This document shows positions 2,004-53,207 of a stretch of DNA of 64,000 nucleotides, piece by piece. The notes below the pieces were generated by a model. The model ran no database searches. It saw only the letters and a list, made by a program, of their open reading frames with translations, and was not told the origin of the DNA. Where the stretch lies: IMG/VR virus record IMGVR_UViG_3300041964_000099, positions 1-64,000 of that record; one strand, written 5' to 3'. The stretch comes from a virus. Position numbers and translations under genes: made by a program. How positions within the stretch are numbered: the stretch's first letter is position 1; each line of letters starts with the position of its first letter.

Positions 2004-2305
2004 TTCGTGTCATTCCGTGTTATCAGCTCGTCAGTTTCTTGTCTTCCTCTATTGCACAACTGAATTGCGCCTTGGACTGCTGTGGCAGCAACTTGAATAA
2101 GTTCAAAAGGATCGGGGTCATTTTCTTTGACGCTATCCCAGAACTCGTCTAGTTCCTCTAGCAATACCGCATAAAGCTCATGTGAGCTATTGAATCTGCC
2201 ATGTTCAGCAGCAGCGGCAACCATTTCATCTTGAACCGCATCAAAGATGGTTGTTGATGTAATTTGCAATGCTTTGTTTGTATGTCGCTTCATTTTAGAT
2301 GCCAA
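2000..2305 (-). CDS. small MazG-like/NTP pyrophosphohydrolase-type protein
   Basis: HGRFNSSHELYAVLLEELDEFW...ELIQVAATA resembles the EExxE and ELIQVAA helices of all-alpha NTP-PPases. Confidence 0.5.
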   Translation of the reverse strand: MASKMKRHTNKALQITSTTIFDAVQDEMVAAAAEHGRFNSSHELYAVLLEELDEFWDSVKENDPDPFELIQVAATAVQGAIQLCNRGRQETDELITRNDTK

Positions 2306-3281
2306 GTTTCAAAGCCTGAACTGCCTCATGCTTCTTGTCTTCCTGCCGCTGGTCATACTTTGCCGTCGTTGCCGGATCGGAGTGCCCGACCAGGCGCTGC
2401 ACAAGAATGATATCGACCCCGGCCTTAAGTAAGTATGTGATAAAAGTTCGGCGAAAGTCATGCGGTGAACAGTCTGGAATGCCAGCTTGTTGCACCCGCT
2501 TTTTGAGCATCACAAGCACCGCTTGAGACTGAAGCGGATTAGGAGAATAGATTAAATTGTCTCCCCGGTTAATCGGGCAGAACAATGGCCCCGGTCTATC
2601 ACCCCGGCGATCGAGCCAGCGCTGTACAGGTGGGATAGCATAGGTCGGCAGGTAAGTAATGCGCGACTTGCGCCCTTTACCATTTAGCACTTTGACGCTG
2701 CCAGTGGTGAGATCAACTTCTTCGCGCATCAGATTCACGACTTCCGATCGCCGCAGGCCCGCGCACAAAATGCCGAGCATTCCAGCATCGCGATCGCCCG
2801 CTGCGGTGGCTTCAGCCTCGCAAACTGCAAACAATTTGCCCAGCTCCGCTTCAGTCAGGGCACGGCCAGACTGAAACTCTTCGGCTTTGATGTCAGCAAT
2901 GTTTGCCGCGCGATGGAAAGTTTCTGTCTCCATCTGCCCCAGCTCCCAGGCTGCACGCAGCGTCTTGCGCAACGCGCAGAGCATTCGATTTGCAGTCTTC
3001 GGAGCATAAAGCGTCATCAGCACCGATCGCAGCGCGACCGTGTGCTGATAGCGCAGTTGTGCCCAGTCGAAGGAGACTGCATCATGCTGCCCGCTCGTGA
3101 GTAGCCCTGCCATCTTATTGAGAGCGCCCAGCATGGTCGGGCGCGAAGATGCCCCTAACTGTGCCAAATAAAGCAGTGCAGGCCGCTCATCTGAAGGGCG
3201 CGGGGAGACCCAGCCCAGCTCGCCAGAGGGAGAGTGAACAAGGGTAGCTGGGATAGGTAGAGGAGCGACACGAGCAGTCAT
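2295..3281 (-). CDS. tyrosine recombinase (XerC/integrase family)
   Basis: AGLRRSE (R), GKGRK (K), HDFRRTF (HxxR), LVGH, TTAKY (Y); probable start MTARV at 3281 (ORF track extends to 3344). Confidence 0.93.
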   Translation of the reverse strand: MTARVAPLPIPATLVHSPSGELGWVSPRPSDERPALLYLAQLGASSRPTMLGALNKMAGLLTSGQHDAVSFDWAQLRYQHTVALRSVLMTLYAPKTANRMLCALRKTLRAAWELGQMETETFHRAANIADIKAEEFQSGRALTEAELGKLFAVCEAEATAAGDRDAGMLGILCAGLRRSEVVNLMREEVDLTTGSVKVLNGKGRKSRITYLPTYAIPPVQRWLDRRGDRPGPLFCPINRGDNLIYSPNPLQSQAVLVMLKKRVQQAGIPDCSPHDFRRTFITYLLKAGVDIILVQRLVGHSDPATTAKYDQRQEDKKHEAVQALKLGI

Positions 3282-3321
3282 GAGAAGTGAAAGTGAGAAG
3301 TTAAACCTAGTGTTCCCAGCG

Positions 3322-3669
3322 TCAGAGACTGCCCTGAACGACATGATCGCGCAGCTCTAAACCCAAGAAGCCGCGAGAAATGTAAGGGGTGTCTTTCCCA
3401 ACCAAAATTTTGAGTTTGAGATCGGGTCGGTTGAGTTTGGCGATCGCATCGTCTCGCCAGTTCTCCATCACTGAAACCATCTCCTCGCTGTGCATCACCA
3501 GCAGCACTGAGGAACCACGGCTCGCTGTTGCGATCGCATCCACGAGCATTGCAGTGGTGCGGCCTGAGCGCCGGGGATATTCAGGATTGACCCGTGCTTT
3601 CTCTTGAAAAAATTCGATCGGTTGCAGGCTGAGCTGCTTGAGAATTTCATCTTGGTTCAGGCTAGTCAT
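3322..3669 (-). CDS. hypothetical protein with a P-loop-like segment
   Basis: RRSGRTTAML resembles a degenerate Walker A; co-oriented with the recombinase operon. Confidence 0.55.
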   Translation of the reverse strand: MTSLNQDEILKQLSLQPIEFFQEKARVNPEYPRRSGRTTAMLVDAIATASRGSSVLLVMHSEEMVSVMENWRDDAIAKLNRPDLKLKILVGKDTPYISRGFLGLELRDHVVQGSL

Positions 3670-9661: not shown

Positions 9662-10216
9662 ATGAACAATATACACGAGACGATCGCCACACTGCGGGCT
9701 GAAATCACGGCACTACGCAGAGAAAATGCACTACTCAAAGACATGGCGCTTCGTGATGCGCTGACCGGAATCTACAACCGTCGCATGTTTGACGTGCGGC
9801 TGGAAGCAGAATGGTCGCGAGCGCAGCGCCAAGCTACACAGATATCGATCTTGATGATCGATATCGATCACTTCAAGCGCTTTAACGATCAGCACGGGCA
9901 TGTTGCGGGCGATCGACTGCTGCATCAACTGGCAGCCGCGTGGAGCTGCATCAAAATGCGCGGGAATGATCTGCTGACTCGCTACGGCGGAGAAGAATTT
10001 GCAGTGATTTTGCCTGATACGACTCTTGTAGGAGCGACAAAGCTGGCCGATCGCCTGCGAATGGTGGCTGAGGCGCAAGGAATAACAGTATCCATTGGGA
10101 TCGCAGCGATCAAGCCGACCGTGAACAATGACCCGCGAATTTTGCTGGCACAAGCTGACCAAGCGCTGTACACGGCAAAGCAGTCTGGGCGCAATCGAGC
10201 CGTCTGCTACAGTTGA
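9662..10216 (+). CDS. stand-alone diguanylate cyclase (GGDEF domain) with N-terminal coiled coil
   Basis: DALTGIYNRR, MIDIDHFKRFND, HVAGD, RYGGEEF, TVSIG, ADQALYTAKQSGRN; RxxD I-site (RGND). Confidence 0.95.
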   Translation: MNNIHETIATLRAEITALRRENALLKDMALRDALTGIYNRRMFDVRLEAEWSRAQRQATQISILMIDIDHFKRFNDQHGHVAGDRLLHQLAAAWSCIKMRGNDLLTRYGGEEFAVILPDTTLVGATKLADRLRMVAEAQGITVSIGIAAIKPTVNNDPRILLAQADQALYTAKQSGRNRAVCYS

Positions 10217-10378: not shown

Positions 10379-10410
10379 ACCCACTGCACTTCCGCAGTGG
10401 GTTCTTTTTT
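10379..10410 (+). terminator. hairpin plus T-tract directly upstream of the RGSGR peptide gene
   Basis: ACCCACTGC-ACTTCC-GCAGTGGGT followed by TCTTTTTT. Confidence 0.55.
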
Positions 10411-10424
10411 ATGGAGACCCCAAA

Positions 10425-10568
10425 ATGCGTTCCACAACAACCCTAATTGTCTCAGTTGCATTTGGCCTCTCTAGCCTATTCGGGCTTCCAAGTAGCGCTA
10501 ATGCTGAGACTCAACCCCCTCAACAGCAGACCGAGACCCCTTCGTTGTATCGAGGTAGCGGTCGCTAA
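10425..10568 (+). CDS. 47-aa secreted PatX/PatS-like peptide ending in RGSGR (not in the ORF track)
   Basis: GGAG RBS 8 nt upstream; MRSTTTLIVSVAFGLSSLFGLPSSANA-ETQPPQQQTETPSLYRGSGR*; hydrophobic signal, A-N-A cleavage motif, terminal RGSGR. Confidence 0.8.
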   Translation: MRSTTTLIVSVAFGLSSLFGLPSSANAETQPPQQQTETPSLYRGSGR

Positions 10569-11378: not shown

Positions 11379-11413
11379 ATCCCCGCTGCACTACCGCAGC
11401 GGGGATATTTTTT
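11379..11413 (+). terminator. hairpin plus T-tract abutting the next RBS
   Basis: ATCCCCGCTGC-ACTACC-GCAGCGGGGAT, then ATTTTTT GGAGG. Confidence 0.55.
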
Positions 11414-11422
11414 GGAGGTTCT

Positions 11423-25660: not shown

Positions 25661-26986
25661 ATGAAGCTTGCAGAACTGAATGCTTTCCGTGTCAAAATCC
25701 GCAAACTGGAAGCCACACCGCAGGAAATCAAAGACAAATGGGTTGAGTTTAAGGCTAGCCAAAACGCGATCACAGCCGAACTCAAGCAGCTCCAAAAGAA
25801 GCAATTGCTGAGAATGTGCGGCTATGGTTGCAGCACCGCTTTCAGAAAAGATCGCCTGGTCAGCATCGCTTTGAAAAACATGATGCAATCATTCGCCCCT
25901 GGCGATACGTTTACTTATGAGCCACACAATCAAACGGTTGAACAAGCCGTTGATGAACAGGTAGAGACCTGGACAGATGAGCTGATTGCAGCGTTGAAAA
26001 ATCCGAAACCGCAACCGGCCTACACACCCCCACCCCCCAGCCCGAAAGAACTTCAACGCCGTGAGGAAGAAGCTAAAGGTGAGGAATGGCTGAAGCTGCA
26101 CAAGCCGAGCTGGGCTGAAGCTGTGATCGTGGCAGAACTGCATCGCGACACATCAGACACACTATCTGACTATCACGGCAGCGAAGTTGAAAAATTTGTG
26201 GTGCTGGCCTGGAGCAAACACACTCGCGATTTGTTCTCTGAAATGAGGCAAGCTGCCGATCGATATCCAGAAACACAGCATTTAGGCACAGACAAGGGGA
26301 TTTTCCGAATTTACAAAAACCCCAACCCTGACTATCCCGATGAACGCAATCGCCGATTATTTGAGTACAACGGGAAAGACTGGTGGCCCACGCTCGAAGA
26401 AGCTGAAGCCGTTGCCCAGGAAGTTGAGCGGCGGGATGCTGAACATATTGCCAAGCGTAAAGCTGGAGTCATTGACCATTCCTACGTCACTCAACTGCCG
26501 TTTGGCTACTTCATTAAAGGCAGTGAAGACAAGATCGAAAATCGAGAAAAATACGCGATGGGGCATGGCTATTATCTGGGCCATGATCGATATAGAGGCT
26601 GGCAAGTTTTCAAGCGGCAGTTTAGTTCTGGAATGGCAGAGGTGGCCGCAGCAATCGGGCGCGGCGACCACATACTTGAGGTTAATCCACCGCAGCAGGC
26701 TCAGCGCTCATCAAAGCGATCGACTAGCCCAGTTCAGCCCAAAGACATCAAGCCACTGACGTTGCCAGAAGGCGTGGAATTGACAATTATCGAATCCCAG
26801 CACACCCAAACAAAAGAAAAGCTGTGGTGTGTGAAAATTTCGCAAAAAGTGGAACGCTCACTTTACAACGAACTCAATAATCGCGCTAAGCAGCTAGGGG
26901 GATACTATTCCAGCTTTAGGCGAGATGGCGCGATTCCTGGCTTCTTATTTAAGGAAGAAGCCAAAGCCAAGCTGTTCATTAGCTAA
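25661..26986 (+). CDS. multi-module (polyvalent-type) hypothetical protein
   Basis: 441 aa; LAWSKHTRDLFSEMR, ENREKYAMGHGYYL and RAKQLGGYYSSF..GFLF blocks resemble conjugative-element proteins. Confidence 0.7.
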   Translation: MKLAELNAFRVKIRKLEATPQEIKDKWVEFKASQNAITAELKQLQKKQLLRMCGYGCSTAFRKDRLVSIALKNMMQSFAPGDTFTYEPHNQTVEQAVDEQVETWTDELIAALKNPKPQPAYTPPPPSPKELQRREEEAKGEEWLKLHKPSWAEAVIVAELHRDTSDTLSDYHGSEVEKFVVLAWSKHTRDLFSEMRQAADRYPETQHLGTDKGIFRIYKNPNPDYPDERNRRLFEYNGKDWWPTLEEAEAVAQEVERRDAEHIAKRKAGVIDHSYVTQLPFGYFIKGSEDKIENREKYAMGHGYYLGHDRYRGWQVFKRQFSSGMAEVAAAIGRGDHILEVNPPQQAQRSSKRSTSPVQPKDIKPLTLPEGVELTIIESQHTQTKEKLWCVKISQKVERSLYNELNNRAKQLGGYYSSFRRDGAIPGFLFKEEAKAKLFIS

Positions 26987-27465
26987 TGACTATAAACTGG
27001 CAGCAGCGGCCTTGCTGCTGCCAAACTTTTCGGAGATTTTTCATGGGGTCAGCAGCATACAGACGGGGTAGCAAACTTGTTCGCGAACAAATCGACGTAG
27101 ACCAAGCTGCCAATCAGCCGTCAGCATTAAAAGTCGCGATCGAAGCTCAGTCCCAGCAGTTCGCAGAAGCAAAAGCAAAAGTTGAAAAGCTAGAAACAGA
27201 TTTGCTAACTGTTAGAAATGCTTATGCGCGTCGTAATGCAGAAGCTAAAGCTCTGAAACTTGAAATTCAAGAGCTACGAGCTGAAGTGAAGCGGCTGCAA
27301 GAAGTTGATGCCAACCAATCTAAACGGCTAAAAGAAATGCGACGGCGCTGGCTTGTAGCTAGCGGAGTCTTGAGAAATCAATTCTCTTCAGAGGACATCG
27401 ATCGCATGAAAGAAGAAGTTTATCAGCAGCATCCAGAGCTGCGGCGCAATGACTCAACCACTTGA
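26986..27465 (+). CDS. coiled-coil hypothetical protein
   Basis: 159 aa; TAATG coupling. Confidence 0.6.
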   Translation: MTINWQQRPCCCQTFRRFFMGSAAYRRGSKLVREQIDVDQAANQPSALKVAIEAQSQQFAEAKAKVEKLETDLLTVRNAYARRNAEAKALKLEIQELRAEVKRLQEVDANQSKRLKEMRRRWLVASGVLRNQFSSEDIDRMKEEVYQQHPELRRNDSTT

Positions 27466-27895
27466 ACAAACGGCCCCGGCCCCGATCGCCTGCAACTGCG
27501 GCTTAGGCGTTTTGATGTGCAAAACCTGCCCTTGCACCGTCACTCCTGATGAAGCTCGCTGGCTGTACAACCGAGGCTATGGCGATCGCCTTATGCTCAA
27601 CTGGATTGGCGATCAGCAGCAACCCGATGCCGTGTTCCTAATGTGCGCAGTCAAAGGGTTCTGTGGGCAAATCGCCCCAGAGCAGTTTCACTCAAGCTGC
27701 ACATTCTTGGATGGGCGCGATCGCTGTGAGCTGCACAGCAAAGGACTCAAACCACTTGAAGGGGCAACGGCCTGCTGCCAGCGGCCCAATGCAGCGGCAT
27801 CAGAACTGCATGATCGGATTACTCAGCTTTGGATGCAGCCGGAAAATCAAGCCTTTCTTGAGCGTTGGAAGACTAAGTATTTAGATATCCGCTAA
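27449..27895 (+). CDS. Cys-rich metal-binding protein (YkgJ-like)
   Basis: CNC..CKTCPC...CTFLD..RCELH..KP..G..AC. Confidence 0.6.
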   Translation: MTQPLEQTAPAPIACNCGLGVLMCKTCPCTVTPDEARWLYNRGYGDRLMLNWIGDQQQPDAVFLMCAVKGFCGQIAPEQFHSSCTFLDGRDRCELHSKGLKPLEGATACCQRPNAAASELHDRITQLWMQPENQAFLERWKTKYLDIR

Positions 27896-27916
27896 ACCGA
27901 AATCAACCAGTCAACC

Positions 27917-27950
27917 TCGATCGCCCATGCTGTCTTGCGGGCGATTTTTT
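27917..27950 (+). repeat. CGATCGCCCG hairpin repeat, copy 5
   Basis: TCGATCGCCCATG-CTGTCT-TGCGGGCGAT-TTTTT. Confidence 0.8.
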
Positions 27951-27981
27951 ATTGCCAAATTCACCATAGGAGCATTGCATC

Positions 27982-28701
27982 ATGAATCAGATGAATCTAA
28001 TGAATCGCACTTGGCATCTCACCGATGCTTTAGCAATGAGCTTGAACGAATACAGCTTATTCTGCAAAATCAAACCCCTGCCAGCGGAAGGGTCTGAAGA
28101 ATTGCTAAAAGCGATCGCGGCCAAAGAACACTTCAGCGACTTTGAACACACGACTGAAGAAGAAGAGAAATACCCTGAACCTGGTGACACTATCTTTGTG
28201 CCTACCAAGTGCCCGATCGAAGGGGGCAACTGGAAATGTGAATCCATCAGCCCCAAGCTTTATGAAAACTTGGGCATTGAACTTGCGCACGCGCCCAAAG
28301 AAGTTGCTTCCAGCTTCTTCAAATATGGGGAGATAGTTGCGATCAACCCTGAGAAGAAAATGACTTTTGAGCATGATTTTCGAGAAGCAGTTTTGGCAAT
28401 GCACCAGATGCCAGATGTGCCGATCGAAGTAGATGCAGAGCTGTATGAATACTTCTTGAATGTGCTGCCGCCGTTCGCCTGCCACGTTCGATTGGAATAT
28501 CCTGAAATCATTCGCAAGCTTTTGCCAGACTGCCCGCAATATCGAGCGGTTGAGTACATCACAGGTGAAGGAGATCATAAAGGCGGCTTTCGATCTGGCG
28601 AGCAATACTACATGCTTGGCATCTCCAAAAATGTGATCGTCAAAAGACCAGGTGATAAAGACAAAACAGCCGATCAGCTATATTTCTCCCACACCCTCTA
28701 A
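27982..28701 (+). CDS. hypothetical protein
   Basis: 239 aa; AGGAG RBS. Confidence 0.7.
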   Translation: MNQMNLMNRTWHLTDALAMSLNEYSLFCKIKPLPAEGSEELLKAIAAKEHFSDFEHTTEEEEKYPEPGDTIFVPTKCPIEGGNWKCESISPKLYENLGIELAHAPKEVASSFFKYGEIVAINPEKKMTFEHDFREAVLAMHQMPDVPIEVDAELYEYFLNVLPPFACHVRLEYPEIIRKLLPDCPQYRAVEYITGEGDHKGGFRSGEQYYMLGISKNVIVKRPGDKDKTADQLYFSHTL

Positions 28702-28779
28702 GGCAACTGCCCGATCGCTTCTTCCCCGTGCCTGCGCTGAACTCAGTGCAGGCATTTTTCTAACTGAATTCTTCAATTT

Positions 28780-30246
28780 ATGTTCTGGGAATACGAGCTA
28801 TATCCAACAAATTACCCAATCATCCACCAAATGATTAGGGAGCTGAAAGTGTCTGTGCATAATCGCCGCCGCATTTGCGACCCATCGGCAGGCGATGGAC
28901 GTATTTTAAGCGTCCTGAACAAAACGCACGGCATTTCTAAACGATCGCTATTTGCCTGCGAAATTCAAGATGACCTCGTGACCTTGCTGCAAAGCAAGGG
29001 TTATAAAGTGCTGGAACGTGATTTCCTCCAGTACAACGAGCCGATTCAGTTTGATTTAATTCTGGCAAATCCGCCATTCAGCATGGGTGTGCGTCACGCT
29101 CTGAAGATGTGGAACTGCTTAGAACCTGATGGCGAGATGGTGATTTTGCTCAATTGGCTGTCAATCAGCTTTTTAGAAGAAATCACAGAGAAGACAATCA
29201 ATACCTATCAAGAGCATCTAGGCAATCTGATTAAACAGCATGGCCGATTTAAGCGGCTGGGCCAATGCTTCCGCCAGTCAGAACGTCCTACTGACGTTGA
29301 AGTAGTGATGATCTATCTGCGAAAGCCCAAAGCTAAGCACACCGGCCCCGACTTTGATGGGATCAACGTCACTGAGGATGAAGCAGCAGCAGTAGATGCT
29401 GCATTTACAGAGAATGCGCTAGCCTCAGCCGACATGATCAAATCGATCGTGGCCCAATATCAGTATGCAGTCGAAGGTCTGAAGCTTCGGGCTAAAGGTC
29501 AGACAATGCTTGACTTCTCCAGACGTGGCCTACCTCGCAGAATTGAAGGGGCAACAACGACAGAAGAAGACAACTCATTAATCCAGCGAGTTCCGTTCGA
29601 TCGCCAGGTGTTTGCCCTCAAAGCAGAATTTTGGGCCTTAATCTTTGAGAAAACCTCGGTTGGAAAGCGAGCAACCAGCGACTTTAGGAAGAAGGTTGAA
29701 ACGTATGCCCTAGAAAATGCAAGCATGTCCTTCTCAGAGGACAACATTCGCATCGTCTTGGGCGTGTTCATGTCCAAAATTGGGAGATACATGCAAGATG
29801 CGATCGTTCGCATTTTTGATCAAGCAACGGCTTATCACAAAAACAATACAGTTCACTATCAAGGCTGGGTGACAAATAAGGCTTGGAAAATTAATGACCG
29901 CATCATTATCCCTGACGGCGTGATTTTCAATAATTTCATTAGCGACTTTAGCGCTCACACCACAGTTCTAGACTTTCTCAGGGACTTCGATCGCTGCCTC
30001 TGCTGGATTTCCAATACCGACATCACAGATCCAAGCTTTTTTAGTGGCGCTGAAGCCTTATCCGATAAATGCTACCAAGCAAACAAGGGTGAGGATTACA
30101 AGCCAGAATTTTTCAGCACATTCTTTCGGCTGAAGATGCACAAAACAGGAACGTTGCACATTGATGTGCAAGACCCGCTGCTGCTTGCAGAATTCAACCG
30201 CTGTGCGGCAGAAGGCAAGAACTGGATTGGTGGCAAAGGTTTTTAA
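28780..30246 (+). CDS. N6-adenine DNA methyltransferase with DUF4942-like C-terminus
   Basis: ICDPSAGDG (motif I), FDLILANPPF (motif IV), C-terminal F..K.HKTGTLHI. Confidence 0.85.
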   Translation: MFWEYELYPTNYPIIHQMIRELKVSVHNRRRICDPSAGDGRILSVLNKTHGISKRSLFACEIQDDLVTLLQSKGYKVLERDFLQYNEPIQFDLILANPPFSMGVRHALKMWNCLEPDGEMVILLNWLSISFLEEITEKTINTYQEHLGNLIKQHGRFKRLGQCFRQSERPTDVEVVMIYLRKPKAKHTGPDFDGINVTEDEAAAVDAAFTENALASADMIKSIVAQYQYAVEGLKLRAKGQTMLDFSRRGLPRRIEGATTTEEDNSLIQRVPFDRQVFALKAEFWALIFEKTSVGKRATSDFRKKVETYALENASMSFSEDNIRIVLGVFMSKIGRYMQDAIVRIFDQATAYHKNNTVHYQGWVTNKAWKINDRIIIPDGVIFNNFISDFSAHTTVLDFLRDFDRCLCWISNTDITDPSFFSGAEALSDKCYQANKGEDYKPEFFSTFFRLKMHKTGTLHIDVQDPLLLAEFNRCAAEGKNWIGGKGF

Positions 30247-30390
30247 TTTGATATTGCCACTAGGAACAAACTTTTCAAAGTTTCAAACTCACCTTATCGC
30301 TTCTGAAATCGACCGCAGCTCGATCGCGTTTCAGTCCTGCGCTGGGGCGTTTCTTGTTGTCCACCCTAACACCAATACCTACTAACGATC

Positions 30391-30798
30391 ATGCAAAGAG
30401 ATTTTTCTCAGTTTCAACAAATCGCTGATGAATTGGGGATTGCCTCAGACAAAGCGCTACAAGAATGTGCCGCACGGGAAGCAATCAACAAACTATGCTC
30501 TCTATGGAGCGAATGGCTTTCAGATTCGGATCTGACAGACGATCTTCTTCTCTCAGATATCAACGAAGTGATCCTAAATCTCAGCAAATGGAAAAATGCG
30601 ATCGCTGCAAAACTGATGACAGAACCTCACAGCGACTCAAAAGGTAAAGGTACTTACGTTGTTGATGTGCCATGCCTTGATAAGCAGTGGGAAGAGGTAG
30701 ACACTTTTGATTCGTGGGAAGAAGCCGTTGCGTTTTGCGAGAACAATTTCGGGGCCGACGAAAATGGGTGCGTCTCGCTCATCACCGAAGTTGAATGA
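30391..30798 (+). CDS. hypothetical protein
   Basis: 135 aa. Confidence 0.6.
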   Translation: MQRDFSQFQQIADELGIASDKALQECAAREAINKLCSLWSEWLSDSDLTDDLLLSDINEVILNLSKWKNAIAAKLMTEPHSDSKGKGTYVVDVPCLDKQWEEVDTFDSWEEAVAFCENNFGADENGCVSLITEVE

Positions 30799-30899
30799 AG
30801 CAAATGAGGTAGAAAAAGTCAGCAACGAATTTTCTCACAAAGCAAGCCCGATCGCGCCTCAGACAAACCTTTCAAATTCAACTTATTAGGAGATTCATC

Positions 30900-31373
30900 A
30901 TGTCCAACAACGCAGCTCAACCGATCGTCGTTCAGCATCAAGAGCGCCCAGATTCAAACATCGATGCTCGGATAGAAAACTTGCCGCCCGACTTGTTCGC
31001 CGCGATCGCCAAGCTAATTCAAGATTTCAAGCCGCTGCCACCTGGCTGCAAGCCTTACAAAGCCACGATTAGAATCATGCAGGATGGCTTTCAATATGAT
31101 TTTGACGAGCTGTTTGTAGCCTCGGCTGAAGAAGACTACAACGACATTGCAGACACAATTGGCCTGTTCTGGCTGCATACGCCGGACGGCTTAGAGCCAG
31201 ATGAAGACGATTACGAAGACGCCGCCGAACAAAACGAAAACGACGAGCGCAGTGTTGAAGTGTTTCGCGAGGAGATTTCACCTGTAGATTACTACTTGAA
31301 GCGCGGCCATCTTCGCGGGGGAAATCCTTCAGACACGGAACTTCAAGTTTATCTGAAACGGAAAGAGCAATAG
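30900..31373 (+). CDS. acidic hypothetical protein
   Basis: 157 aa; AGGAG RBS. Confidence 0.65.
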   Translation: MSNNAAQPIVVQHQERPDSNIDARIENLPPDLFAAIAKLIQDFKPLPPGCKPYKATIRIMQDGFQYDFDELFVASAEEDYNDIADTIGLFWLHTPDGLEPDEDDYEDAAEQNENDERSVEVFREEISPVDYYLKRGHLRGGNPSDTELQVYLKRKEQ

Positions 31374-31951
31374 CGATCGCTTGCCGCTAGCTTGGGCGAT
31401 CGTCTCATCTTCAGTCAGCTTGCGAGTCAGAATGAAGTGCGGCTGGAGATGGATGACGATCGTTCAACGCCGCAGCAACTTCGTTAATCCGTTTTATGAT
31501 AAATAGTTTCTGAATCTAGATTCTAGGGAGTGATTTGTGAACGTTTTTGCAACAGGTTTGACCTATCGAGGCTGGAATATTGAGATAGGAGAGGATAAAG
31601 GGTATCACTATCGCATGTTTGAGCCAGAGATCAACTATGGTGGCTGGGTGAAGAAACATTTAGCCGATCCTGTGGCAGTGATCATTGCTGCCAAGCAAGA
31701 TATCGACGTGACTGTAGATGGGCGCGATCGCCAGCACAATCGACTTTCATGTGCGATCGAGCTGGCTTGCCATTGGCAAGTTACTCCAATTGTTGTAGAG
31801 GTTTAATCAACGCCTCCTGATTGGGCATTGAATGCAGTGAGCAATCCTCAACAATGACAAAAATTCCAGGCTGGCAAAAGATTATTACTTAAAGCGCGGC
31901 CATCTTCGCGGGGAAAATCCCTCAGAAACGGAAAGAGCGATAGCGATCGCT
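31286..31951 (+). repeat. direct repeat pair (31286-31381 and 31879-31951) ending at HIP1
   Basis: AGATTA(C/T)TACTT(G/A)AAGCGCGGCCATCTTCGCGGGG...AACGGAAAGAGC(A/G)ATAGCGATCGCT; second copy lacks about 24 bp. Confidence 0.85.
31537..31806 (+). CDS. hypothetical protein
   Basis: 89 aa; GTG start after GGGAG. Confidence 0.55.
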   Translation: MNVFATGLTYRGWNIEIGEDKGYHYRMFEPEINYGGWVKKHLADPVAVIIAAKQDIDVTVDGRDRQHNRLSCAIELACHWQVTPIVVEV

Positions 31952-32032
31952 CATCCCTAAATCGAATTCGACAAACGCCTTTGCACATTGCAGAGGCGTT
32001 TGTTTTTTGCGCCAACTCATTCATTTAGCAAC

Positions 32033-33109
32033 ATGCTGACATTTTCATCAACGCCACTCCCTACAGCGGTGTTAGAGGCGATCGTCCAGAGTCCAGTGCG
32101 CAAACTGGGCGATCGCAGCTATGCCCTCGAATTGCCGCCCATGAGCCACGAGGATTATCAAGCCTGCAAGAAAGTCATGGTGGCTCTGCGGGGAATGTGG
32201 AGCAGTTCAAAGCAGGCCCACCTGTTTAGCTATGACCCGACTGCGGCGATCGCCAGCCTGATTCAAGCTGGAACGTTCCCCAAAACCAATCCGCATCAGT
32301 TTCACCCAACACCAGAAATTGAAATTGAAGACTTGCTGGATTTCATCGGCCTCTGTGATTGGCCCTGGCAGGAAGACATCACAGGATTAGAGCCGAGCGC
32401 TGGAGATGGCCGATTGGCTCTAGCTGCTCAAAAACGCAGTCCCAGAGCGAAGCTCGATGTCGTTGAGATTGACCCATTCAATCGCGAAATTCTCGCGGGC
32501 CTGGGCCTGCATCTAGTGGGCAGTGACTGGCTTAAAACCACGCTTGAGAAAGAATACGATTTTGTCGTCCTCAACCCGCCATTTAAGGGAACCCAGTACG
32601 TTGACCACACTTTGAAGGCGTTCGACGCTCTAAAAATGTTTCGGCAGCTTGGGGCGATCGTGCCAGAAATAATGCTGTCAGACTCATCTCCAAAAGTGCG
32701 ACGCTTTCGCAACCTCATTGCGGAGTGCGGCTGGTGGGAGCCAATCGGCGCTCCGTTTAAAACAACCAAAACGCGCTGCCTGATGATCCGGCTCGATCGC
32801 CTCAGTCAGGCCGAGCGCGATCGCGGCTGGCAGCAGATGGGCGCATACGAATCGCGATACCACTGCGATATCGAGCAGGCACTCGAAACCGATGGGCAAT
32901 GGTATGAATTCATGCAGTCGCTGGCTAAAGAGGAGTCTAAGGCCCACGTCAAAGCAATGCTGCCCGTCCGCCTGACTCAAGCCGTAGAGCGAATGATTCG
33001 CGAAGAATACTGCTGTTTTCTCTACAACGATCGCGTGAAGGCGCAACTGATGCGATCGCTACTGCGCGAGCTGGGCCTTGAGCCTGATCAACGCTGGCAA
33101 GCTGCTTAG
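32033..33109 (+). CDS. N6-adenine DNA methyltransferase (orphan)
   Basis: QFHPTP, LEPSAGDG, VEID, YDFVVLNPPF; probable ATG 32033. Confidence 0.85.
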   Translation: MLTFSSTPLPTAVLEAIVQSPVRKLGDRSYALELPPMSHEDYQACKKVMVALRGMWSSSKQAHLFSYDPTAAIASLIQAGTFPKTNPHQFHPTPEIEIEDLLDFIGLCDWPWQEDITGLEPSAGDGRLALAAQKRSPRAKLDVVEIDPFNREILAGLGLHLVGSDWLKTTLEKEYDFVVLNPPFKGTQYVDHTLKAFDALKMFRQLGAIVPEIMLSDSSPKVRRFRNLIAECGWWEPIGAPFKTTKTRCLMIRLDRLSQAERDRGWQQMGAYESRYHCDIEQALETDGQWYEFMQSLAKEESKAHVKAMLPVRLTQAVERMIREEYCCFLYNDRVKAQLMRSLLRELGLEPDQRWQAA

Positions 33110-40231: not shown

Positions 40232-40729
40232 ATGAATCCCAACGATCACCCCACTATGATCACGCTGATCGGCCAAGTCCGCAAAATTTGGGACGATCAC
40301 TATGCCGCCAACAGGCGCAAATTTGGAGAGCCGGAAGAAGAAGAGTGTTATTTTCATTTGACGCCTTGTTACCGATGCTCAGCTCCTTCCTGGCAGGAAC
40401 CCTGTCCGTGGTGTCACTTTTACCATATGGGCCGTGCTGATGCGAACGAAGCCGAGCAGAATCGCGAGAAAAATCGCCTTCCATTTGAACGATTCAAAAG
40501 CGCCGTAGACACGCATGGCAATTTTGCTGCGCTCTACTTCCGTTGCCACCACAACCCCAAACAATCGGCGATCGATGCGGCTGCGGCGCTGACTGACTGC
40601 CCCACTCCCGAACAAATTTGGGAAGCCGTCACAGGCTTAAACCCTGAGCAGCCGCGATCGGTTTACCCCATCCCCGTAGACCAGCGGGAGGCTCTGTTAA
40701 AACAGCGGTTAGAAGACGACAATTTCTGA
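40232..40729 (+). CDS. hypothetical protein with CxxC...CxxC
   Basis: PCYRC and PCPWC. Confidence 0.65.
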   Translation: MNPNDHPTMITLIGQVRKIWDDHYAANRRKFGEPEEEECYFHLTPCYRCSAPSWQEPCPWCHFYHMGRADANEAEQNREKNRLPFERFKSAVDTHGNFAALYFRCHHNPKQSAIDAAAALTDCPTPEQIWEAVTGLNPEQPRSVYPIPVDQREALLKQRLEDDNF

Positions 40730-41109
40730 TGAACAATTCCCCAAAAGCTCTGTTTCCCTCAATCAACGGTGAAGTCAACCCTGACAATCTAATCTGCTCT
40801 GGCCTGATTCCAGCGGAATTGAAGGGCAAACCCTGCCCCTACTCAATCAACGGACGGTTGCCCGACCTTGTTCCACTTGATGAAACCGATCCCAATTACA
40901 GCTCTGACAAAGGCAAGCCTGGAGACCTTTGCCCACCCTGCGCAAAACAACAGCTTGCTCATTTGGGCCACTGGCAAGGGCATCAACAGCAAGCGTTTCC
41001 TGAAGACCTCTTGCCCCTACGGTTGTTCAAGTGCCGCATGTGGTTTTGGCTGGTTATTCCTGGGCTGCATGATGCAGAGCCAACAAAGCTAAGCGAAAAC
41101 AACTCTTAA
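40729..41109 (+). CDS. Cys-containing hypothetical protein
   Basis: 126 aa; TGATG coupling; CPYS, LCPPC, FKCR. Confidence 0.65.
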   Translation: MNNSPKALFPSINGEVNPDNLICSGLIPAELKGKPCPYSINGRLPDLVPLDETDPNYSSDKGKPGDLCPPCAKQQLAHLGHWQGHQQQAFPEDLLPLRLFKCRMWFWLVIPGLHDAEPTKLSENNS

Positions 41110-41666: not shown

Positions 41667-42725
41667 ATGCAATCGTCACAACTACGACTCAATCTCTTCT
41701 CAGCTTCCTGGGAGGAGTTTTTTTTAGATGCGATCGATTTATCCTCCTACGATCGCATCGTTATTTTTCTCTCCGGCGGTAAAGACTCAGTTTGCTGCTT
41801 GCTGATTGTCAGATATCTATTAGAGAAGCAAGGACTGCAAGACAAAATTGAAGTCGAAGCATGGCATCACTGCGTAGATGGGCGCGAAGAAGGCTTAAAT
41901 CTGATGGATTGGGCCTATACAGAGTCCTACTGCCAGAAGCTCTGTGATGCCTTCAATATCAAGCTCTACTTCTCGTGGCTTGAAGGAGGCATGGCGCGAG
42001 AACTGGTCAGGGAAAACCAAGCCAAATCGCGCACCTGGTTTGAAACGCCAGACGGTCTTATGTGTGCCGGTGGTAACTCAAAAGACCTGACTACTCGCCT
42101 GAATTTTCCGCAAACCAGCAATGATCTTAATGTGCGCTGGTGTAGCCCTTACTTAAAAATTGATGTAGGCCGCATCGCTGTTCGCAATCAAAAACGGTTC
42201 AAAGGCAGCCGGACGCTGCTAGTTTCAGGCGAGCGAGCAGAAGAAAGCCCAAAACGAGCCAAGTATTTGCAAATTGAGCCGGATGAAACGCATTGTGCCA
42301 GCCGCTATGTCGATCGCTGGCGACCCGTGCATCACATCGACCAGGTGATAGTTTGGCAGATTATTCAATATTTTGGCGTCAATCCAGCGCCGTCGTATCT
42401 GCTGGGTTTTGGCCGCAAAAGCTGCCGCAACTGCATTTTCAACGGAGATGACGAATGGGCCACGCTGCGGCAAATTGACCCAGAAGGCTTTGCCCGCATT
42501 CTCGCGTTCGAGTTGCTATTCCAAAAAACCATCTTCAACAGCAAGTTGCCGTTTGAGGAGCGCACGATCGAGGCCCGCGCCAATCGCGGCACACCGTTCC
42601 CAAACATGCAGCCCGACGACATTCGCGCTGCCCTCAGCTCCACATTCGATCGTCCAATCCTGCTACCTCCTGACAAATGGAAGTTGCCCGCAGGCGCGTT
42701 TGGCCGTAACTGTGGCCCCACTTAA
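41667..42725 (+). CDS. phosphoadenosine phosphosulfate (PAPS) reductase family protein
   Basis: PP-loop FLSGGKDS, RWCSPYLK, GERAEESPKR, WRPV, SCRNCIF. Confidence 0.85.
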   Translation: MQSSQLRLNLFSASWEEFFLDAIDLSSYDRIVIFLSGGKDSVCCLLIVRYLLEKQGLQDKIEVEAWHHCVDGREEGLNLMDWAYTESYCQKLCDAFNIKLYFSWLEGGMARELVRENQAKSRTWFETPDGLMCAGGNSKDLTTRLNFPQTSNDLNVRWCSPYLKIDVGRIAVRNQKRFKGSRTLLVSGERAEESPKRAKYLQIEPDETHCASRYVDRWRPVHHIDQVIVWQIIQYFGVNPAPSYLLGFGRKSCRNCIFNGDDEWATLRQIDPEGFARILAFELLFQKTIFNSKLPFEERTIEARANRGTPFPNMQPDDIRAALSSTFDRPILLPPDKWKLPAGAFGRNCGPT

Positions 42726-42730
42726 ACACT

Positions 42731-43000
42731 ATGGGAAAAAGAATACCGATCGAAATCAAGTTTGACAAGCTGCAAGCCCTGACCAGAGAAACAATTTGCC
42801 GTGAAGCTCAAAAGCTAGATTACGACGGCAAAGTAGACATCTATCGAAATCGAATTGTCACTCTCAAAACAACAGCGAAACAAATCATTTCTAAAGTTTT
42901 GGAAGAGTACAAACAAGCCTCGATCGAGCTGTTTGGAGAGGAAGATTACACAGATCAAGAGCTGGCTGACTTTAACTACCTCAAGTCGTTAGTTAAATAA
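42731..43000 (+). CDS. hypothetical protein
   Basis: 89 aa. Confidence 0.55.
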   Translation: MGKRIPIEIKFDKLQALTRETICREAQKLDYDGKVDIYRNRIVTLKTTAKQIISKVLEEYKQASIELFGEEDYTDQELADFNYLKSLVK

Positions 43001-43127
43001 CCAGCGCATTCGATCGCAACTGTGGCCCCAGCCAGCTTTCAAACAGCAAATCAACTCGATCGAGGCAGTGTCAACCGGCGCTGCCTCGATTTTGTTCAAG
43101 TTCAAGTCAACCGCATTGGAGGTTTAT

Positions 43128-43859
43128 ATGTGTTTGCAATCTGATCAACTGAAAAGCCCATTACTCGCCATCAGCTACAGCAAGCCGGAAACGCACCACG
43201 GCTACACTTCCGCAAAAATGTCGGCCTGTCCTGCATGGCGAGACGAGAGCAACGATATTCGCTGCTTCAGCAAATACCGACAATACCCCGATCGTTTCTA
43301 TCAGTCTCTGCGGCTGCAAACCTATGTGTCAGCGGACTCAAAGAGACAGTATGCCGATTCTAAAATCGCATACTTCGATCCCTACTCAGTCAATGCCGAG
43401 GAAGCGGAAATGATGCACAAAACATTGCAGCGGATTCGGCGGCAAATGTCGAAGTTCAATGACAAATTTGCCTACCCCGAAACCTTTGGAGGCGAAATAA
43501 ACCGACTTGCTTGGATAGTTGGGGCAAAAGAAATTTGGATTTGGCGAACAGAAAAAACGGGCGTATCACTGAAGCCAGCCGACGCGATCGAGGTCATAGA
43601 CCAGGACTGGATGCACCTTCAGACTGAATGCCAAATCAAGGCCGGAACCTATGACGGCGTAGTGAAATGCTTCACAACGGCCCCAGTTGAATACGACGGG
43701 TTTGGCACAGTAGCGCCGGAGACCCGCGAGATCAAAGGGCAGACCGTCCGGCTAGTTGAGATTGAAGGCCGCTACTATCGCTGGCAAGTCGATCGCTATC
43801 GCAGCGGACTGTACCTCACGACTCGCACCGAAGCAGAGATGACGCGCTATCTCAAGTAG
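43128..43859 (+). CDS. hypothetical protein, tandem paralog 1
   Basis: ATG 43128 after GGAGG; strongly similar to 43998-44723. Confidence 0.75.
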   Translation: MCLQSDQLKSPLLAISYSKPETHHGYTSAKMSACPAWRDESNDIRCFSKYRQYPDRFYQSLRLQTYVSADSKRQYADSKIAYFDPYSVNAEEAEMMHKTLQRIRRQMSKFNDKFAYPETFGGEINRLAWIVGAKEIWIWRTEKTGVSLKPADAIEVIDQDWMHLQTECQIKAGTYDGVVKCFTTAPVEYDGFGTVAPETREIKGQTVRLVEIEGRYYRWQVDRYRSGLYLTTRTEAEMTRYLK

Positions 43860-43997
43860 TGCTGGAAGCCGATGGCGATCGGCTTCCAGCACAAGGCACA
43901 CCCCTACCGGCTGGAGCTGCATCAGTTTCACTTCCGCAGCGCATTCGATCGCAACCGTGGCCCCAAGTTTTTCATTCAATCAACTAGGAGATTAACT

Positions 43998-44723
43998 ATG
44001 TCAGACGACAAAAAGCATCTAAAACCAATAATCGCTATTTCCAAAGGCCAGCCAGAATCGCATTACGGTTCAGTCCATGCAAAGATTGTGGCCTATCCTG
44101 CTTGCCAAGAAGAAGATGGAGTTGTTTATGGCTTGGGCAATAATTATCGATACCCTGATCGAGCTTATCAATCATTGGGAATGCACACATGGGTGTTTTC
44201 AGATACAAAGTCCTGTGGAGAATGCAAAATTGCTTATCGCGATGTCTATGAAATAGATTTTGACGACATGGAACGAATGAGCAAGACGATGCGCCGCATT
44301 CGCCGCCGTATTACTCAATATGTCGATAAAAACGGCTATGTTGAGACTTTTGGGCATCGTGTAGCGCGATTTGCTTGGGTTTTGAATGCCACACAAGTTT
44401 GGATTTGGCAGACAGAAAAAACCGGCATTTTGCTCAAGGTCGATGATGCGATCGATATCCTTAACCAAACTTGGGAGAATTTGCATATCGACTGCCAAAT
44501 CAAAGCTGGAACCTATGACGGCGTAGTGAAATGCTACACAACTGCGCCTGCGGACTATGACGCCTTTGAAAGCAAAACGATCGAACATTACAAAATTAAA
44601 GACAAGACAGTTCGCGTCGTTGAGATTGAAGGTCGGCATTACAATTGGCACGTCAGCCGCTATCAAAGCGGAATGCACATCACGACGCGCACTAAAGAGG
44701 AAATGGCTCTCTGTGTTGGATGA
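43998..44723 (+). CDS. hypothetical protein, tandem paralog 2
   Basis: ATG 43998 after AGGAG; shares CQIKAGTYDGVVKC and VEIEGR with paralog 1. Confidence 0.75.
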   Translation: MSDDKKHLKPIIAISKGQPESHYGSVHAKIVAYPACQEEDGVVYGLGNNYRYPDRAYQSLGMHTWVFSDTKSCGECKIAYRDVYEIDFDDMERMSKTMRRIRRRITQYVDKNGYVETFGHRVARFAWVLNATQVWIWQTEKTGILLKVDDAIDILNQTWENLHIDCQIKAGTYDGVVKCYTTAPADYDAFESKTIEHYKIKDKTVRVVEIEGRHYNWHVSRYQSGMHITTRTKEEMALCVG

Positions 44724-45043
44724 AAACTATCACTATCGAATTCCAGTACGAGGGCCACCCCTATCGCCTGGATCTGCATCAGTATCATTATCACTTCTAC
44801 GAAAAGCGAGCGCTCACCGTCTGGGAGGGCGCTTTATTTTTGGCAGCCGTTACAGACCCGACCACGTTTGAGCGCATCAACCCCAGCCGCGAGCTGGCCG
44901 TTGCTGCGCTGCAAGCCATCAAAGTGTTGCCCGCTGCTCAGCGGCGCAGGATTGCACGACGGGCGATCGATCGCGTCGTTGCTCTCCTCACTGAGGACTA
45001 TGTGAAAAATCTGCAAATCTGCCAATCGATCGGCGTACTTTGA
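44720..45043 (+). CDS. hypothetical protein
   Basis: 107 aa; a truncated copy of its 5' end lies at about 43872-43935. Confidence 0.6.
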   Translation: MKTITIEFQYEGHPYRLDLHQYHYHFYEKRALTVWEGALFLAAVTDPTTFERINPSRELAVAALQAIKVLPAAQRRRIARRAIDRVVALLTEDYVKNLQICQSIGVL

Positions 45044-45071
45044 CCACTAATTCATTCAAGGAGTTCATTCA

Positions 45072-46196
45072 ATGGCAACAACACGACGAACAAAACGCGC
45101 GACTCGCGAAGAATTGCCAGATGAGCTGGCAAACAGCTTTTACGAGTTTGAATGCGTCCAGTTTCTCCAGTCAAAGCACAATGCTTGGGTTGCTACTATT
45201 CCCGCTAGACAAATTCACAGCTTATTTGCTCTGCGCGAGGCTCGCGCTAGTAATCCGCTGGAATGGTGGCAACGTGGTATCAATTTCAGTCGAGTCAAGA
45301 AACTGGTTAAGTATGTGATCGATGCGATGCTGTCTAACCGCCAGAAACGTTACATTCTGCCTTGTGTCACAGTCGCCATCAATGGCGATGTGGACTTTGA
45401 AGAGTATTTTCAAGATCGCAACGATCGGCACAGCGGCATTCTAAAAGTTCAATATGGCGCAGTGTTTTGCTGCGTTGATGGACAGCATAGGCTGTGCGGG
45501 CTGGGAGATTCCTTTAGCGCTCAGCCTGACCTGATGCAGTGTGAATCAATTGCCGTGATGTTTTTTGTTGACTTGGGAGGGCACTTCAAGGAACAAGCTT
45601 TTCTCGATATCAACACAAATGCTGTCCGGCCCAGTCCGTCAATTTTTGCATTATTCAACCACAATGACCCGATCGCAGAAGCGGCGCGGCAGGTGGCGAC
45701 GACAATTCACGCTTTCAAATTAGTGACCGACATGGAAAACACGAACATCCGGCCACGCGACACTTTGAACATTTTCACCCTCAATGCAATCAACGCCGCT
45801 TGCAAGGAATTGTGGAAAGGCATTGAGCTTGAAGAAAATGTTGATCTAGTGGCCGAGACCTTACAATTTTGGTCGATCGTAGAAAAGCACATGGGTGCAT
45901 GGAAAATCATCAGAAGTCTTAACGTCAACAAGTCATTATTTCTATCTGACTACATTGCCTGCAATGCCTTGACTTTGATGGCATTGGGAATGCTGGGCAA
46001 TGTGCTGCGAAAGGAAGGAACCGATTGGGAGTCGGTTCTTCCGCGCCTCGCAACTGTTGACTGGGGGCGGCACAACCCTGAATGGAGAGATCTATTTATC
46101 TTCAACGGCAATCTGGTTAAAACTCAGCAAACATGCCGTGCCTTCGCGACCTGGCTCTACGGCCACGTCAAGACCAGCGATAAACCCGCTGAATAA
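45072..46196 (+). CDS. dndB: DGQHR-domain DNA sulfur modification protein DndB homolog
   Basis: RGINFSRVKKL..Y, YILP, VDGQHR, QAFLDINTNAVRPSPSI..LFNHND. Confidence 0.85.
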   Translation: MATTRRTKRATREELPDELANSFYEFECVQFLQSKHNAWVATIPARQIHSLFALREARASNPLEWWQRGINFSRVKKLVKYVIDAMLSNRQKRYILPCVTVAINGDVDFEEYFQDRNDRHSGILKVQYGAVFCCVDGQHRLCGLGDSFSAQPDLMQCESIAVMFFVDLGGHFKEQAFLDINTNAVRPSPSIFALFNHNDPIAEAARQVATTIHAFKLVTDMENTNIRPRDTLNIFTLNAINAACKELWKGIELEENVDLVAETLQFWSIVEKHMGAWKIIRSLNVNKSLFLSDYIACNALTLMALGMLGNVLRKEGTDWESVLPRLATVDWGRHNPEWRDLFIFNGNLVKTQQTCRAFATWLYGHVKTSDKPAE

Positions 46197-52374: not shown

Positions 52375-52504
52375 GCGATCATTCCACCGCTGGGGGTTTC
52401 GCATTGGAGCGCTGGCGATCGCCTTGTGTGCGATCATCCTGCCCAGCTTGAGCGGAACTCATGCAATGGCCGCTGAGCCAAATTCAACAAAACTCGTCAG
52501 TTGA
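52355..52504 (+). CDS. small signal-peptide/membrane peptide (49 aa)
   Basis: MSRYPSKRSFHRWGFRIGALAIALCAIILPSLSGTHAMAAEPNSTKLVS; basic N-terminus, hydrophobic core, AMA motif. Confidence 0.5.
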   Translation: MSRYPSKRSFHRWGFRIGALAIALCAIILPSLSGTHAMAAEPNSTKLVS

Positions 52505-52517
52505 GATCGAGGTAGGG

Positions 52518-53207
52518 ATGCAAATTGAACTAAGAAATGTAGGGAGCATTGTTTTCAACACGGGCGCAGAAAATCAAACTGTCTGGCCTGAAATGAGAGC
52601 GCAATTAGAGCCAGCGCCCTCACCATTGCCATCCCTACCCGCTGCATCTCAAAAGCAAATTGCTGCTTCAGACACATCGCCGCCATCAGCGGCGATCGTT
52701 CCCGCTCCTGCCGGGAAAATCGTTCAACCGCTGCCAACGCCGATTCCAACTCGGCCAGTCGTGCCGATGCAGCCGCCAACGCCACCACCGAGCGTTTTGG
52801 CGTTCCGCGCTGCCAAGCAGCGGCAGCAGATGCAAACTTTTTTGCCGCCACCACCGGCAAGTTTGCAGTTGCCGCCACCGCCCGCAAGCTTGGAGCAGTT
52901 GCAATTAGAACCAGAAAATGTAGAGGAAGAAAATAGCAATTCTTTCTGGTTTGGATTTCTGGATTCTTTTATTGACATTTCACTCATAGTTTTAACCATC
53001 TTGCTAGCTGGCGTAATGGCAATGCGATGGTATGAGGAAAGATCCCAGCCTGAATCGCAAACTCCGGCTCCAACTTCAACGCCACGACCCCAACGCCGAC
53101 CCCAACGCCGACGCCCAACGCCGACCCCAACTTCAACGCCAACCCCTGCGGCTGGCTCTCAGCCTGTTCCAGTTCCAGCAATCCCAATTCCGCAAGGAAG
53201 ACAATGA
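52518..53207 (+). CDS. proline-rich single-pass membrane protein
   Basis: PPPP tracts; ISLIVLTILLAGVMAM; probable ATG 52518. Confidence 0.7.
   Translation: MQIELRNVGSIVFNTGAENQTVWPEMRAQLEPAPSPLPSLPAASQKQIAASDTSPPSAAIVPAPAGKIVQPLPTPIPTRPVVPMQPPTPPPSVLAFRAAKQRQQMQTFLPPPPASLQLPPPPASLEQLQLEPENVEEENSNSFWFGFLDSFIDISLIVLTILLAGVMAMRWYEERSQPESQTPAPTSTPRPQRRPQRRRPTPTPTSTPTPAAGSQPVPVPAIPIPQGRQ

Follow-up and report, generated by a model that had tools for sequence, protein, structure and literature searches.

The oldest pair of activator and inhibitor in cyanobacterial multicellularity is that of HetR and PatX, the latter acting as an exported, processed and diffusible peptide. In Nostoc, PatX depends on its Sec signal and on export, PatP is the peptidase that cleaves it, and differentiation is blocked when the C-terminal hexapeptide of PatX binds HetR and inhibits it; direct binding to HetR is known for RGSGR and related hexapeptides (PMC12756182). 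In filamentous cyanobacteria PatX occurs together with HetR, both in those that form heterocysts and in those that do not, its function in non-heterocystous filaments is unknown, and necridia are among the HetR-linked fates (PMC7761841). Here we analysed the first 64 kilobases (kb) of a 121,302-base-pair (bp) IMG/VR virus record, IMGVR_UViG_3300041964_000099, which is 98% complete by CheckV estimate; this 64,000-nucleotide stretch is referred to as the window. On its plus strand the window carries a patX-like gene of 47 codons plus a TAA stop codon (10425-10568), whose product, P0001, is homologous to the products of chromosomal patX genes located upstream of hetR. PatX is already known, and what appears to be new here, as judged from sequence comparison, is a viral copy with homology to hetR-linked patX. 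In the literature searched, no phage patX was reported and no paper connected PatX or RGSGR with phages.

The ATG at 10425 is the earliest ATG, GTG or TTG past the preceding in-frame stop, so the start of P0001 is unambiguous, and a Shine-Dalgarno-like GGAG, read directly from the sequence, is located 8 nucleotides (nt) 5' of it (10413-10416, plus strand). In the predicted Sec-type signal peptide, residues 1-27 (10425-10505), Arg2 precedes a hydrophobic core that spans roughly residues 4-21 (Kyte-Doolittle means over 9 residues reach 2.66) and is followed by P-S-S-A-N-A, whose A-N-A occupies residues 25-27. By the -3/-1 rule the cleavage site would lie after Ala27. The predicted exported part is a hydrophilic 20-residue pro-peptide (10506-10565), composed of a Pro/Gln-rich linker and the tail PSLYRGSGR, with the RGSGR codons 43-47 at 10551-10565 and the stop codon (10566-10568) directly 3' of them. 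An earlier description of this DNA from its letters and open reading frames (ORFs), hereafter the sequence-only reading, had proposed a 47-codon ORF with a ribosome-binding site, and its position and translation proved exact. It had also proposed a Sec-type signal, an A-N-A motif and a 20-residue mature part ending in RGSGR, an architecture that the hydropathy profile bears out, with the cleavage itself predicted. Its statement that the ORF had been missed does not hold everywhere, as the identical 47-amino-acid (aa) protein is already called as a gene in a public protein collection.

To find relatives of P0001, we searched 1.84 billion representative proteins with phmmer and obtained exactly one, P0004 (E 4.5e-4). 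An ungapped alignment with P0001 covers the last 46 residues of P0004 at 57% identity, with PPQQ...PSLYRGSGR-stop conserved and a hydrophobic segment that has diverged. The first 112 residues of P0004, which have no match in the virus record, resemble an upstream ORF fused by the gene caller. The upstream neighbour of P0004 differs from that of P0001, with no gene for a GGDEF protein located there.

A profile made from P0001 and the P0004 tail (A1) was used in a six-frame search of 401 Cyanobacteriia genomes. The best match, the only one at full length and the only one to include the tail, was a 47-aa ORF of genome G101 ending in SSLYRGSGR-stop (E 6.6e-6 per genome, 28.8 bits, profile positions 4-47). 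This ORF (L095:1498-1641, minus strand) shares its strand with a 299-aa hetR and is located 207 bp upstream of it, a placement expected by chance about once in 10,000 in a 5.8-Mb genome. BLASTP comparison of P0001 with the G101 ORF showed 64% identity across the last 22 residues (E 6e-7). A second locus was found with profile A3 among 57 genomes of the order of G101, an order that includes a metagenome-assembled genome (MAG) titled Leptolyngbyaceae cyanobacterium RM1_406_9. In this locus, that of genome G418, a 46-aa ORF (L193:1498-1638, minus strand) is located directly upstream of hetR. The G418 hetR (L193:392-1289, minus strand) is itself split into two overlapping frames of 209 and 91 aa, a frameshift or a MAG assembly error.

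HetR was present in 212 of the 401 sampled genomes. A HetR query fragment, validated against PDB entries 4hri and 3qod, was used to retrieve 80 hetR loci, and these loci together with the upstream regions of 60 hetR genes yielded 51 candidate RG[ST]GR ORFs with hydrophobic N-termini. Among all 51, the G101 ORF is the closest to P0001, with a BLOSUM62 local score of 63 compared with at most 54 for the rest.

Comparisons with the two hetR-linked proteins showed that P0001 shares their length (47 aa, versus 47 and 46 aa in G101 and G418), an N-terminal hydrophobic signal-like segment ending in A-x-A, a short Pro/Gln/Ser-rich linker and SLYRGSGR-stop. The signal segment of P0001 can be aligned to the hydrophobic N-terminal segments that hetR-linked PatX proteins carry. 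Overall identity is 45-48%, rising to 64% in the last 22 residues, and it is the signal segment and linker that have diverged; the tail reads PSLYRGSGR in P0001 and P0004 and SSLYRGSGR in G101 and G418. Between the viral gene and that of G101, four of the last eight codons (SLYRGSGR) differ, all synonymously, so the tail is conserved at the protein level and is not a recent DNA copy. These synonymous changes point to selection on the peptide. The sequence-only reading had considered the ORF PatX-like and had named conservation of the frame and of RGSGR as a check; the frame and motif are kept in P0004, G101 and G418, and the homology to chromosomal patX directly upstream of hetR supports its view.

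The only NCBIfam family matched by P0001 is NF047413 (PatX), at E 0.0075 and 17.0 bits, below the 30-bit cut-off, and in a six-frame search of the virus record with this model the P0001 ORF was the sole match. NF047413 is an equivalog model of Nostocales, and in a calibration 9 of 10 hetR-linked PatX proteins also scored under 30 (0-27 bits), only the Nostocales one passing with 92 bits. The cut-off therefore does not delimit the wider PatX family, of which 17 bits is typical. The two nearest of 7.7 million ESM Atlas clusters to P0001 are PatX clusters (score 0.80), which we treat as a lead only. Taken with the homology to hetR-linked patX, these comparisons make it very probable that the P0001 ORF is a genuine PatX-family gene, of a short type that ends at the motif.

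Among the described RGSGR proteins, P0001 resembles PatX (Asl2332) of Nostoc/Anabaena sp. PCC 7120 in having a Sec-type signal, predicted in P0001, and RG(S/T)GR near the C-terminus. Nostocales PatX proteins differ from it in being longer (about 70-80 aa), in carrying HRG(T/S)GR and in extending a few residues past the motif. The RGSGR of P0001 is identical to that of HetN and of PatS of Anabaena PCC 7120, and its position at the C-terminal end is as in PatS. PatS, however, is far shorter (13-17 aa), lacks a signal peptide and ends in ERGSGR, whereas P0001 has 47 aa, a signal-like N-terminus and Tyr before the motif. In HetN, which is large and oxidoreductase-like, RGSGR is internal; the architecture of P0001 is that of PatX. 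In Nostocales, patS and patX have the promoter motif DIF1, TCCGGA, of which the viral genome contains zero copies. We rejected this motif as a discriminator, since only 4 of 48 cellular candidates have TCCGGA within 300 nt.

The element that carries the gene was found to be a tailed virus. The right half of the record encodes a major head protein (1.8e-63), a head maturation protease (2.4e-65), a portal (8.2e-88), a large terminase (9e-29) and tail fibres, all recognised with PHROG, and these head, portal, terminase and tail genes place it in Caudoviricetes. The capsid protein is nearest to those of Planktothrix phage PaV-LD (41.7% identity) and Aphanizomenon phage vB_AphaS-CL131 (CL131; 35%), large tailed phages of filamentous cyanobacteria and the nearest cultured capsid relatives. 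A tyrosine integrase near the left end of the record (2295-3344, minus strand; Pfam PF00589, E 7.6e-27) suggests a temperate lifestyle. The cyanobacterial motif HIP1, GCGATCGC, is the commonest octamer of the phage, with 120 copies against 1.9 expected. Three biocrust metagenome runs, which belong to two studies with sampling in 2017 and 2021, contain the identical phage sequence; the contigs aligned to the window were identical to it, without variation among them. The element is a tailed cyanophage from soil crusts, probably temperate, and not a plasmid. The sequence-only reading had classed it as a plasmid-like mobile element, a class that the virion genes do not bear out. A source of that reading may be the left arm with its accessory and DNA-metabolism genes, which encode the GGDEF cyclase, clamp-like, several methyltransferase-like, DndB-like and PAPS-reductase-like proteins and an FtsK-like ATPase. 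The capsid and P0002, the product of the downstream neighbour of the patX-like gene, had no close relatives in IMG/VR.

In G101 and G418 the gene stands directly upstream of a hetR with which it shares its strand; the phage gene is instead flanked by a GGDEF gene and an ORFan, and no hetR is found in the record (no PF03574 match in the 121 kb). Because the record is viral and lacks hetR, P0001 is not the syntenic chromosomal patX of the host, a possibility the sequence-only reading had itself raised, and because the gene sits in a virus, any HetR target must be that of the host.

The upstream neighbour (9662-10216, plus strand) encodes a stand-alone GGDEF diguanylate cyclase of 184 aa (Pfam PF00990, E 6.4e-45). 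Between this gene and the patX-like gene there is a terminator-like hairpin with a T-run (10379-10411, plus strand), with a 9-10 bp stem, 6 G-C pairs and the tail TCTTTTTTAT. Downstream, the 224-aa ORFan P0002 (10657-11331, plus strand) is followed by a second terminator-like hairpin and T-run (11379-11415, plus strand; 11 bp stem, 8 G-C pairs), and the core CTGCAC-N4-GCAG is common to both hairpins (10379-10402 and 11379-11406). As the two hairpins bracket them, the patX-like gene and P0002 form one terminator-bounded two-gene unit, which is a frequent arrangement of accessory 'moron' genes. The 214-nt intergenic RNA upstream of the patX-like gene folds with z = -3.2, and Rfam returned nothing credible around the ORF. 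P0002 has no Pfam or PHROG family and gave nothing usable from the ESM Atlas; a part for P0002 in a PatX pathway found no support in these three resources and was set aside.

By analogy with PatX of Nostoc, we propose, with moderate confidence, that the gene is a virus-borne PatX-family member, an accessory gene of the 'moron' type in a temperate-looking phage, which would inhibit the HetR of the host through an exported peptide. The host would be a HIP1-rich filamentous cyanobacterium. The 47-aa pre-peptide would be exported by Sec and cut after A-N-A27, and the Pro/Gln-rich pro-peptide of about 20 aa would be trimmed in the periplasm, as by the conserved peptidase PatP in Nostoc, to a short peptide ending in (Y)RGSGR. 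This peptide would enter the cytoplasm of the producing and neighbouring cells, bind the hood domain of HetR and block DNA binding by HetR. Infected or lysogenic filaments and their neighbours would then be held in an undifferentiated vegetative state, with HetR-dependent programmes suppressed independently of how the host regulates its own patX. In heterocystous hosts these programmes would be heterocysts; in non-heterocystous ones they may be necridia or fates of the fragmentation type. Such a reprogramming of differentiation, which the sequence-only reading had also put forward, is an inference. The phage would probably gain by keeping filaments vegetative and connected, through a block on terminal differentiation or on HetR-linked fates such as necridia. 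Prediction of a complex between residues 18-47 of P0001 and the hood domain of G101 HetR (residues 216-299) gave a score of 0.00, which speaks neither for nor against binding.

Several observations weigh against this proposal. In Leptolyngbya BL0902, which is non-heterocystous, the transcriptome effects of PatX seemed to be largely independent of HetR (PMC11298460), so HetR may not be the target in a Leptolyngbya-like host. No sigma-70-type promoter was recognised around the patX-like gene, and the upstream hairpin ends 13 nt before the ATG, so that transcription would need read-through or an unrecognised promoter; no RNA run containing the stretch was found, and expression is presumed. PaV-LD and CL131 have neither a PatX-like ORF nor an RG[ST]GR-stop ORF, which means that the gene is not a conserved feature of the phage group. 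The cyanobacterial genomes searched showed no close prophage or spacer-like match to the phage, the NCBIfam score of P0001 lies under the curated cut-off, and only three relatives of P0001 (G101, G418 and P0004) were found. Among the searches for further relatives, scans of viral, metagenome or genome contigs did not turn up P0004, and with profile A1 neither viral nor metagenome contigs yielded a relative. Of the word-indexed protein searches, both the one with P0001 and the one with A1 returned P0001 itself only. In tblastn searches, P0001 and two cellular PatX proteins gave nothing, or noise at E of at least 0.3, among 50,697 phage records, and P0001 had no match among the 72,556 plasmid records of PLSDB.

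An accident of sequence, in which an intergenic frame combined a hydrophobic start with RGSGR-stop, is extremely unlikely to account for the ORF. It is short, and its NCBIfam and ESM scores are each weak. Under a loose PatX-like rule (an ATG ORF of 25-140 aa with an N-terminal hydrophobic window and RG[ST]GR no more than 12 aa from the stop), 400 first-order Markov randomisations of the 121-kb genome gave 0.0175 such ORFs per genome, so a scan of very many windows would include chance cases, and with about 250,000 windows scanned such rarity would by itself be too little. None of the 400 randomised genomes gave an ORF ending exactly at the motif; in the actual record P0001 is the sole RG[ST]GR-terminal ORF, the one other RGSGR lying within an Arg-rich antisense frame. 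It is the homology, not randomisation alone, that raises P0001 above chance: two independent searches gave relatives with the same length, architecture and tail, and the best match of 401 genomes had the improbable placement next to hetR described above, a second such locus being found thereafter. A genuine patX might still be a silent passenger, captured from a host, unexpressed, without benefit and decaying. The failure to recognise a promoter, the terminator-like hairpin shortly upstream of the gene, the absence of the gene from PaV-LD and CL131 and the finding of no RNA run that contains it would agree with such a fate. We nevertheless regard it as improbable, given an intact ORF with GGAG at the right distance, a tail kept through synonymous changes although identity to the nearest cellular copy is only 45-48%, a diverged P0004 that in another gene context keeps the frame, the hydrophobic segment and PSLYRGSGR-stop, and the identity of the sequence in the runs of the two studies sampled four years apart.

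The sequence-only reading had further placed the peptide gene just after a diguanylate cyclase, in what would be a plasmid-borne signalling cassette, and in such a plasmid or conjugative element the two could form one module for host behaviour. The observation that the two genes are adjacent and co-oriented stands, and the FtsK-like, methyltransferase and DndB-like genes in the window can look plasmid-like. Beyond this adjacency the two-part module is unsupported, as a terminator-like hairpin separates the genes and P0004 has another upstream neighbour, no GGDEF gene and N-terminal residues unmatched in the phage. A plasmid or conjugative element was rejected on the full complement of genes for head, portal, terminase and tail fibres, on the classification of the record as a virus, and on the empty tblastn search of the plasmid records; replicon or transfer genes without virion genes, the mark of a plasmid, are not the pattern seen. 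Such a cassette is therefore very improbable. A phage peptide descended from PatX might also be expressed and exported but have a target other than HetR, which seems unlikely but deserves more weight; it could be a HetR-independent signal, as PatX seems to be in BL0902, or have a use peculiar to the phage, as in lysogen communication or superinfection control. In support of such a target, deletion of patX in BL0902 had expression effects 'basically independent of HetR' (PMC11298460), the MAG titled Leptolyngbyaceae is in the order of the nearest cellular relatives, G101 and G418, and the role of PatX in non-heterocystous filaments is unknown (PMC7761841). Yet what phage and cell have kept in common is precisely the motif that binds HetR, with its free C-terminus, RGSGR and related hexapeptides are direct ligands of HetR (PMC12756182), and the cellular relatives share the strand of hetR and are located immediately upstream of it.

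If functional, the phage patX would be an auxiliary gene aimed at cell fate and cell-to-cell signalling of the host and not at metabolism. Because its product would be exported, it could act on uninfected neighbour cells too. We therefore raise, tentatively and with more doubt than conviction, the idea that a temperate cyanophage secretes a counterfeit of the diffusible morphogen of its host and so imposes 'do not differentiate' on the whole filament through HetR, uninfected cells included. If true, a virus would be manipulating multicellular patterning in a bacterium. P0001, with its predicted 20-residue mature part ending at RGSGR, is also a natural minimal PatX that may be useful for studying export, PatP processing and HetR binding, and it bears on the role played by HetR and by PatX in non-heterocystous filaments such as biocrust Leptolyngbya-like cyanobacteria.

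The host presumably carries HetR. Hints to its identity are the richness in HIP1, the capsid relatives that infect filamentous cyanobacteria, and the nearest patX genes, found in an order that includes the Leptolyngbyaceae MAG. A search with 60 kb of phage DNA against nine genomes (G101, G418, G001, G002, G005, G216, G258, G338 and G341) gave no spacer-like or prophage-like match; matches were confined to a GGDEF stretch, which is conserved, one 126-aa ORF in common with G001 and a short repeat. The capsid had distant matches only, at no more than 36% identity, in the 401 cyanobacterial genomes. The 126-aa ORF of unknown function (40729-41109, plus strand) has a counterpart (L196:2254-2628) with 76% DNA and 77% protein identity in the MAG titled Leptolyngbyaceae cyanobacterium RM1_406_9, on a contig of 7.8 kb where it is the only gene shared, and as a pointer to the host it is a weak hint. 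A stretch of about 85 nt (53061-53147), inside the ORF 52461-53207, has several matches in G101 and G418 at 72-87% identity and may be a short repeat or low-complexity coding motif in common with Leptolyngbya-like genomes. The GGDEF and methyltransferase genes were discarded as host markers, since their best plasmid matches are proteobacterial or actinobacterial and uninformative.

The best plasmid-borne relatives of the GGDEF protein are proteobacterial, at about 43-44% identity. This protein has a short N-terminal coiled-coil-like segment and an intact GGEEF, and RGND, located five residues before GGEEF, may be an I-site.

The survey of hetR-upstream regions also showed further forms of inhibitor precursor in cellular genomes. 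Multi-cassette PatX genes, with 3 to 8 tandem (Y/H/E)RGSGR units behind one signal peptide, were found upstream of hetR in seven loci (L124:1167-1532, L125:901-1236, L126:1012-1314, L170:1423-1758, L178:527-799, L174:616-963 and L177:649-960). Other small hetR-upstream ORFs have no clear signal peptide. Some of them are 27-36 aa long and end PatS-like in FNRGSGR-stop or LNRGSGR-stop (L171:1042-1152, L175:827-910 and L182:992-1099), and others have 50 aa with LHRGSGRR (L164:885-1037, L165:1263-1415 and L176:1014-1166). The ORFs without a clear signal may represent a leaderless class of inhibitor precursors.

The phage genome also avoids palindromes to an extreme degree. Among the 64 palindromic hexamers, 31 are fully absent from the record, each being expected about 30 times, and 38 occur at no more than 3 copies; of the 60 hexamers missing from the genome in all, these 31 are palindromic. 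In contrast to this avoidance, CGATCG is present in 537 copies and HIP1 in 120. The pattern has the look of a wholesale adaptation against restriction. Genes for DNA modification are clustered in the window (25661-33109 and 41667-46196), among them three methyltransferase-like ORFs, one of them with DUF4942, together with DndB-like (PF14072, E 1.3e-69) and PAPS-reductase/DndC-like genes, and this cluster and the palindrome avoidance suggest a heavy investment against host restriction.

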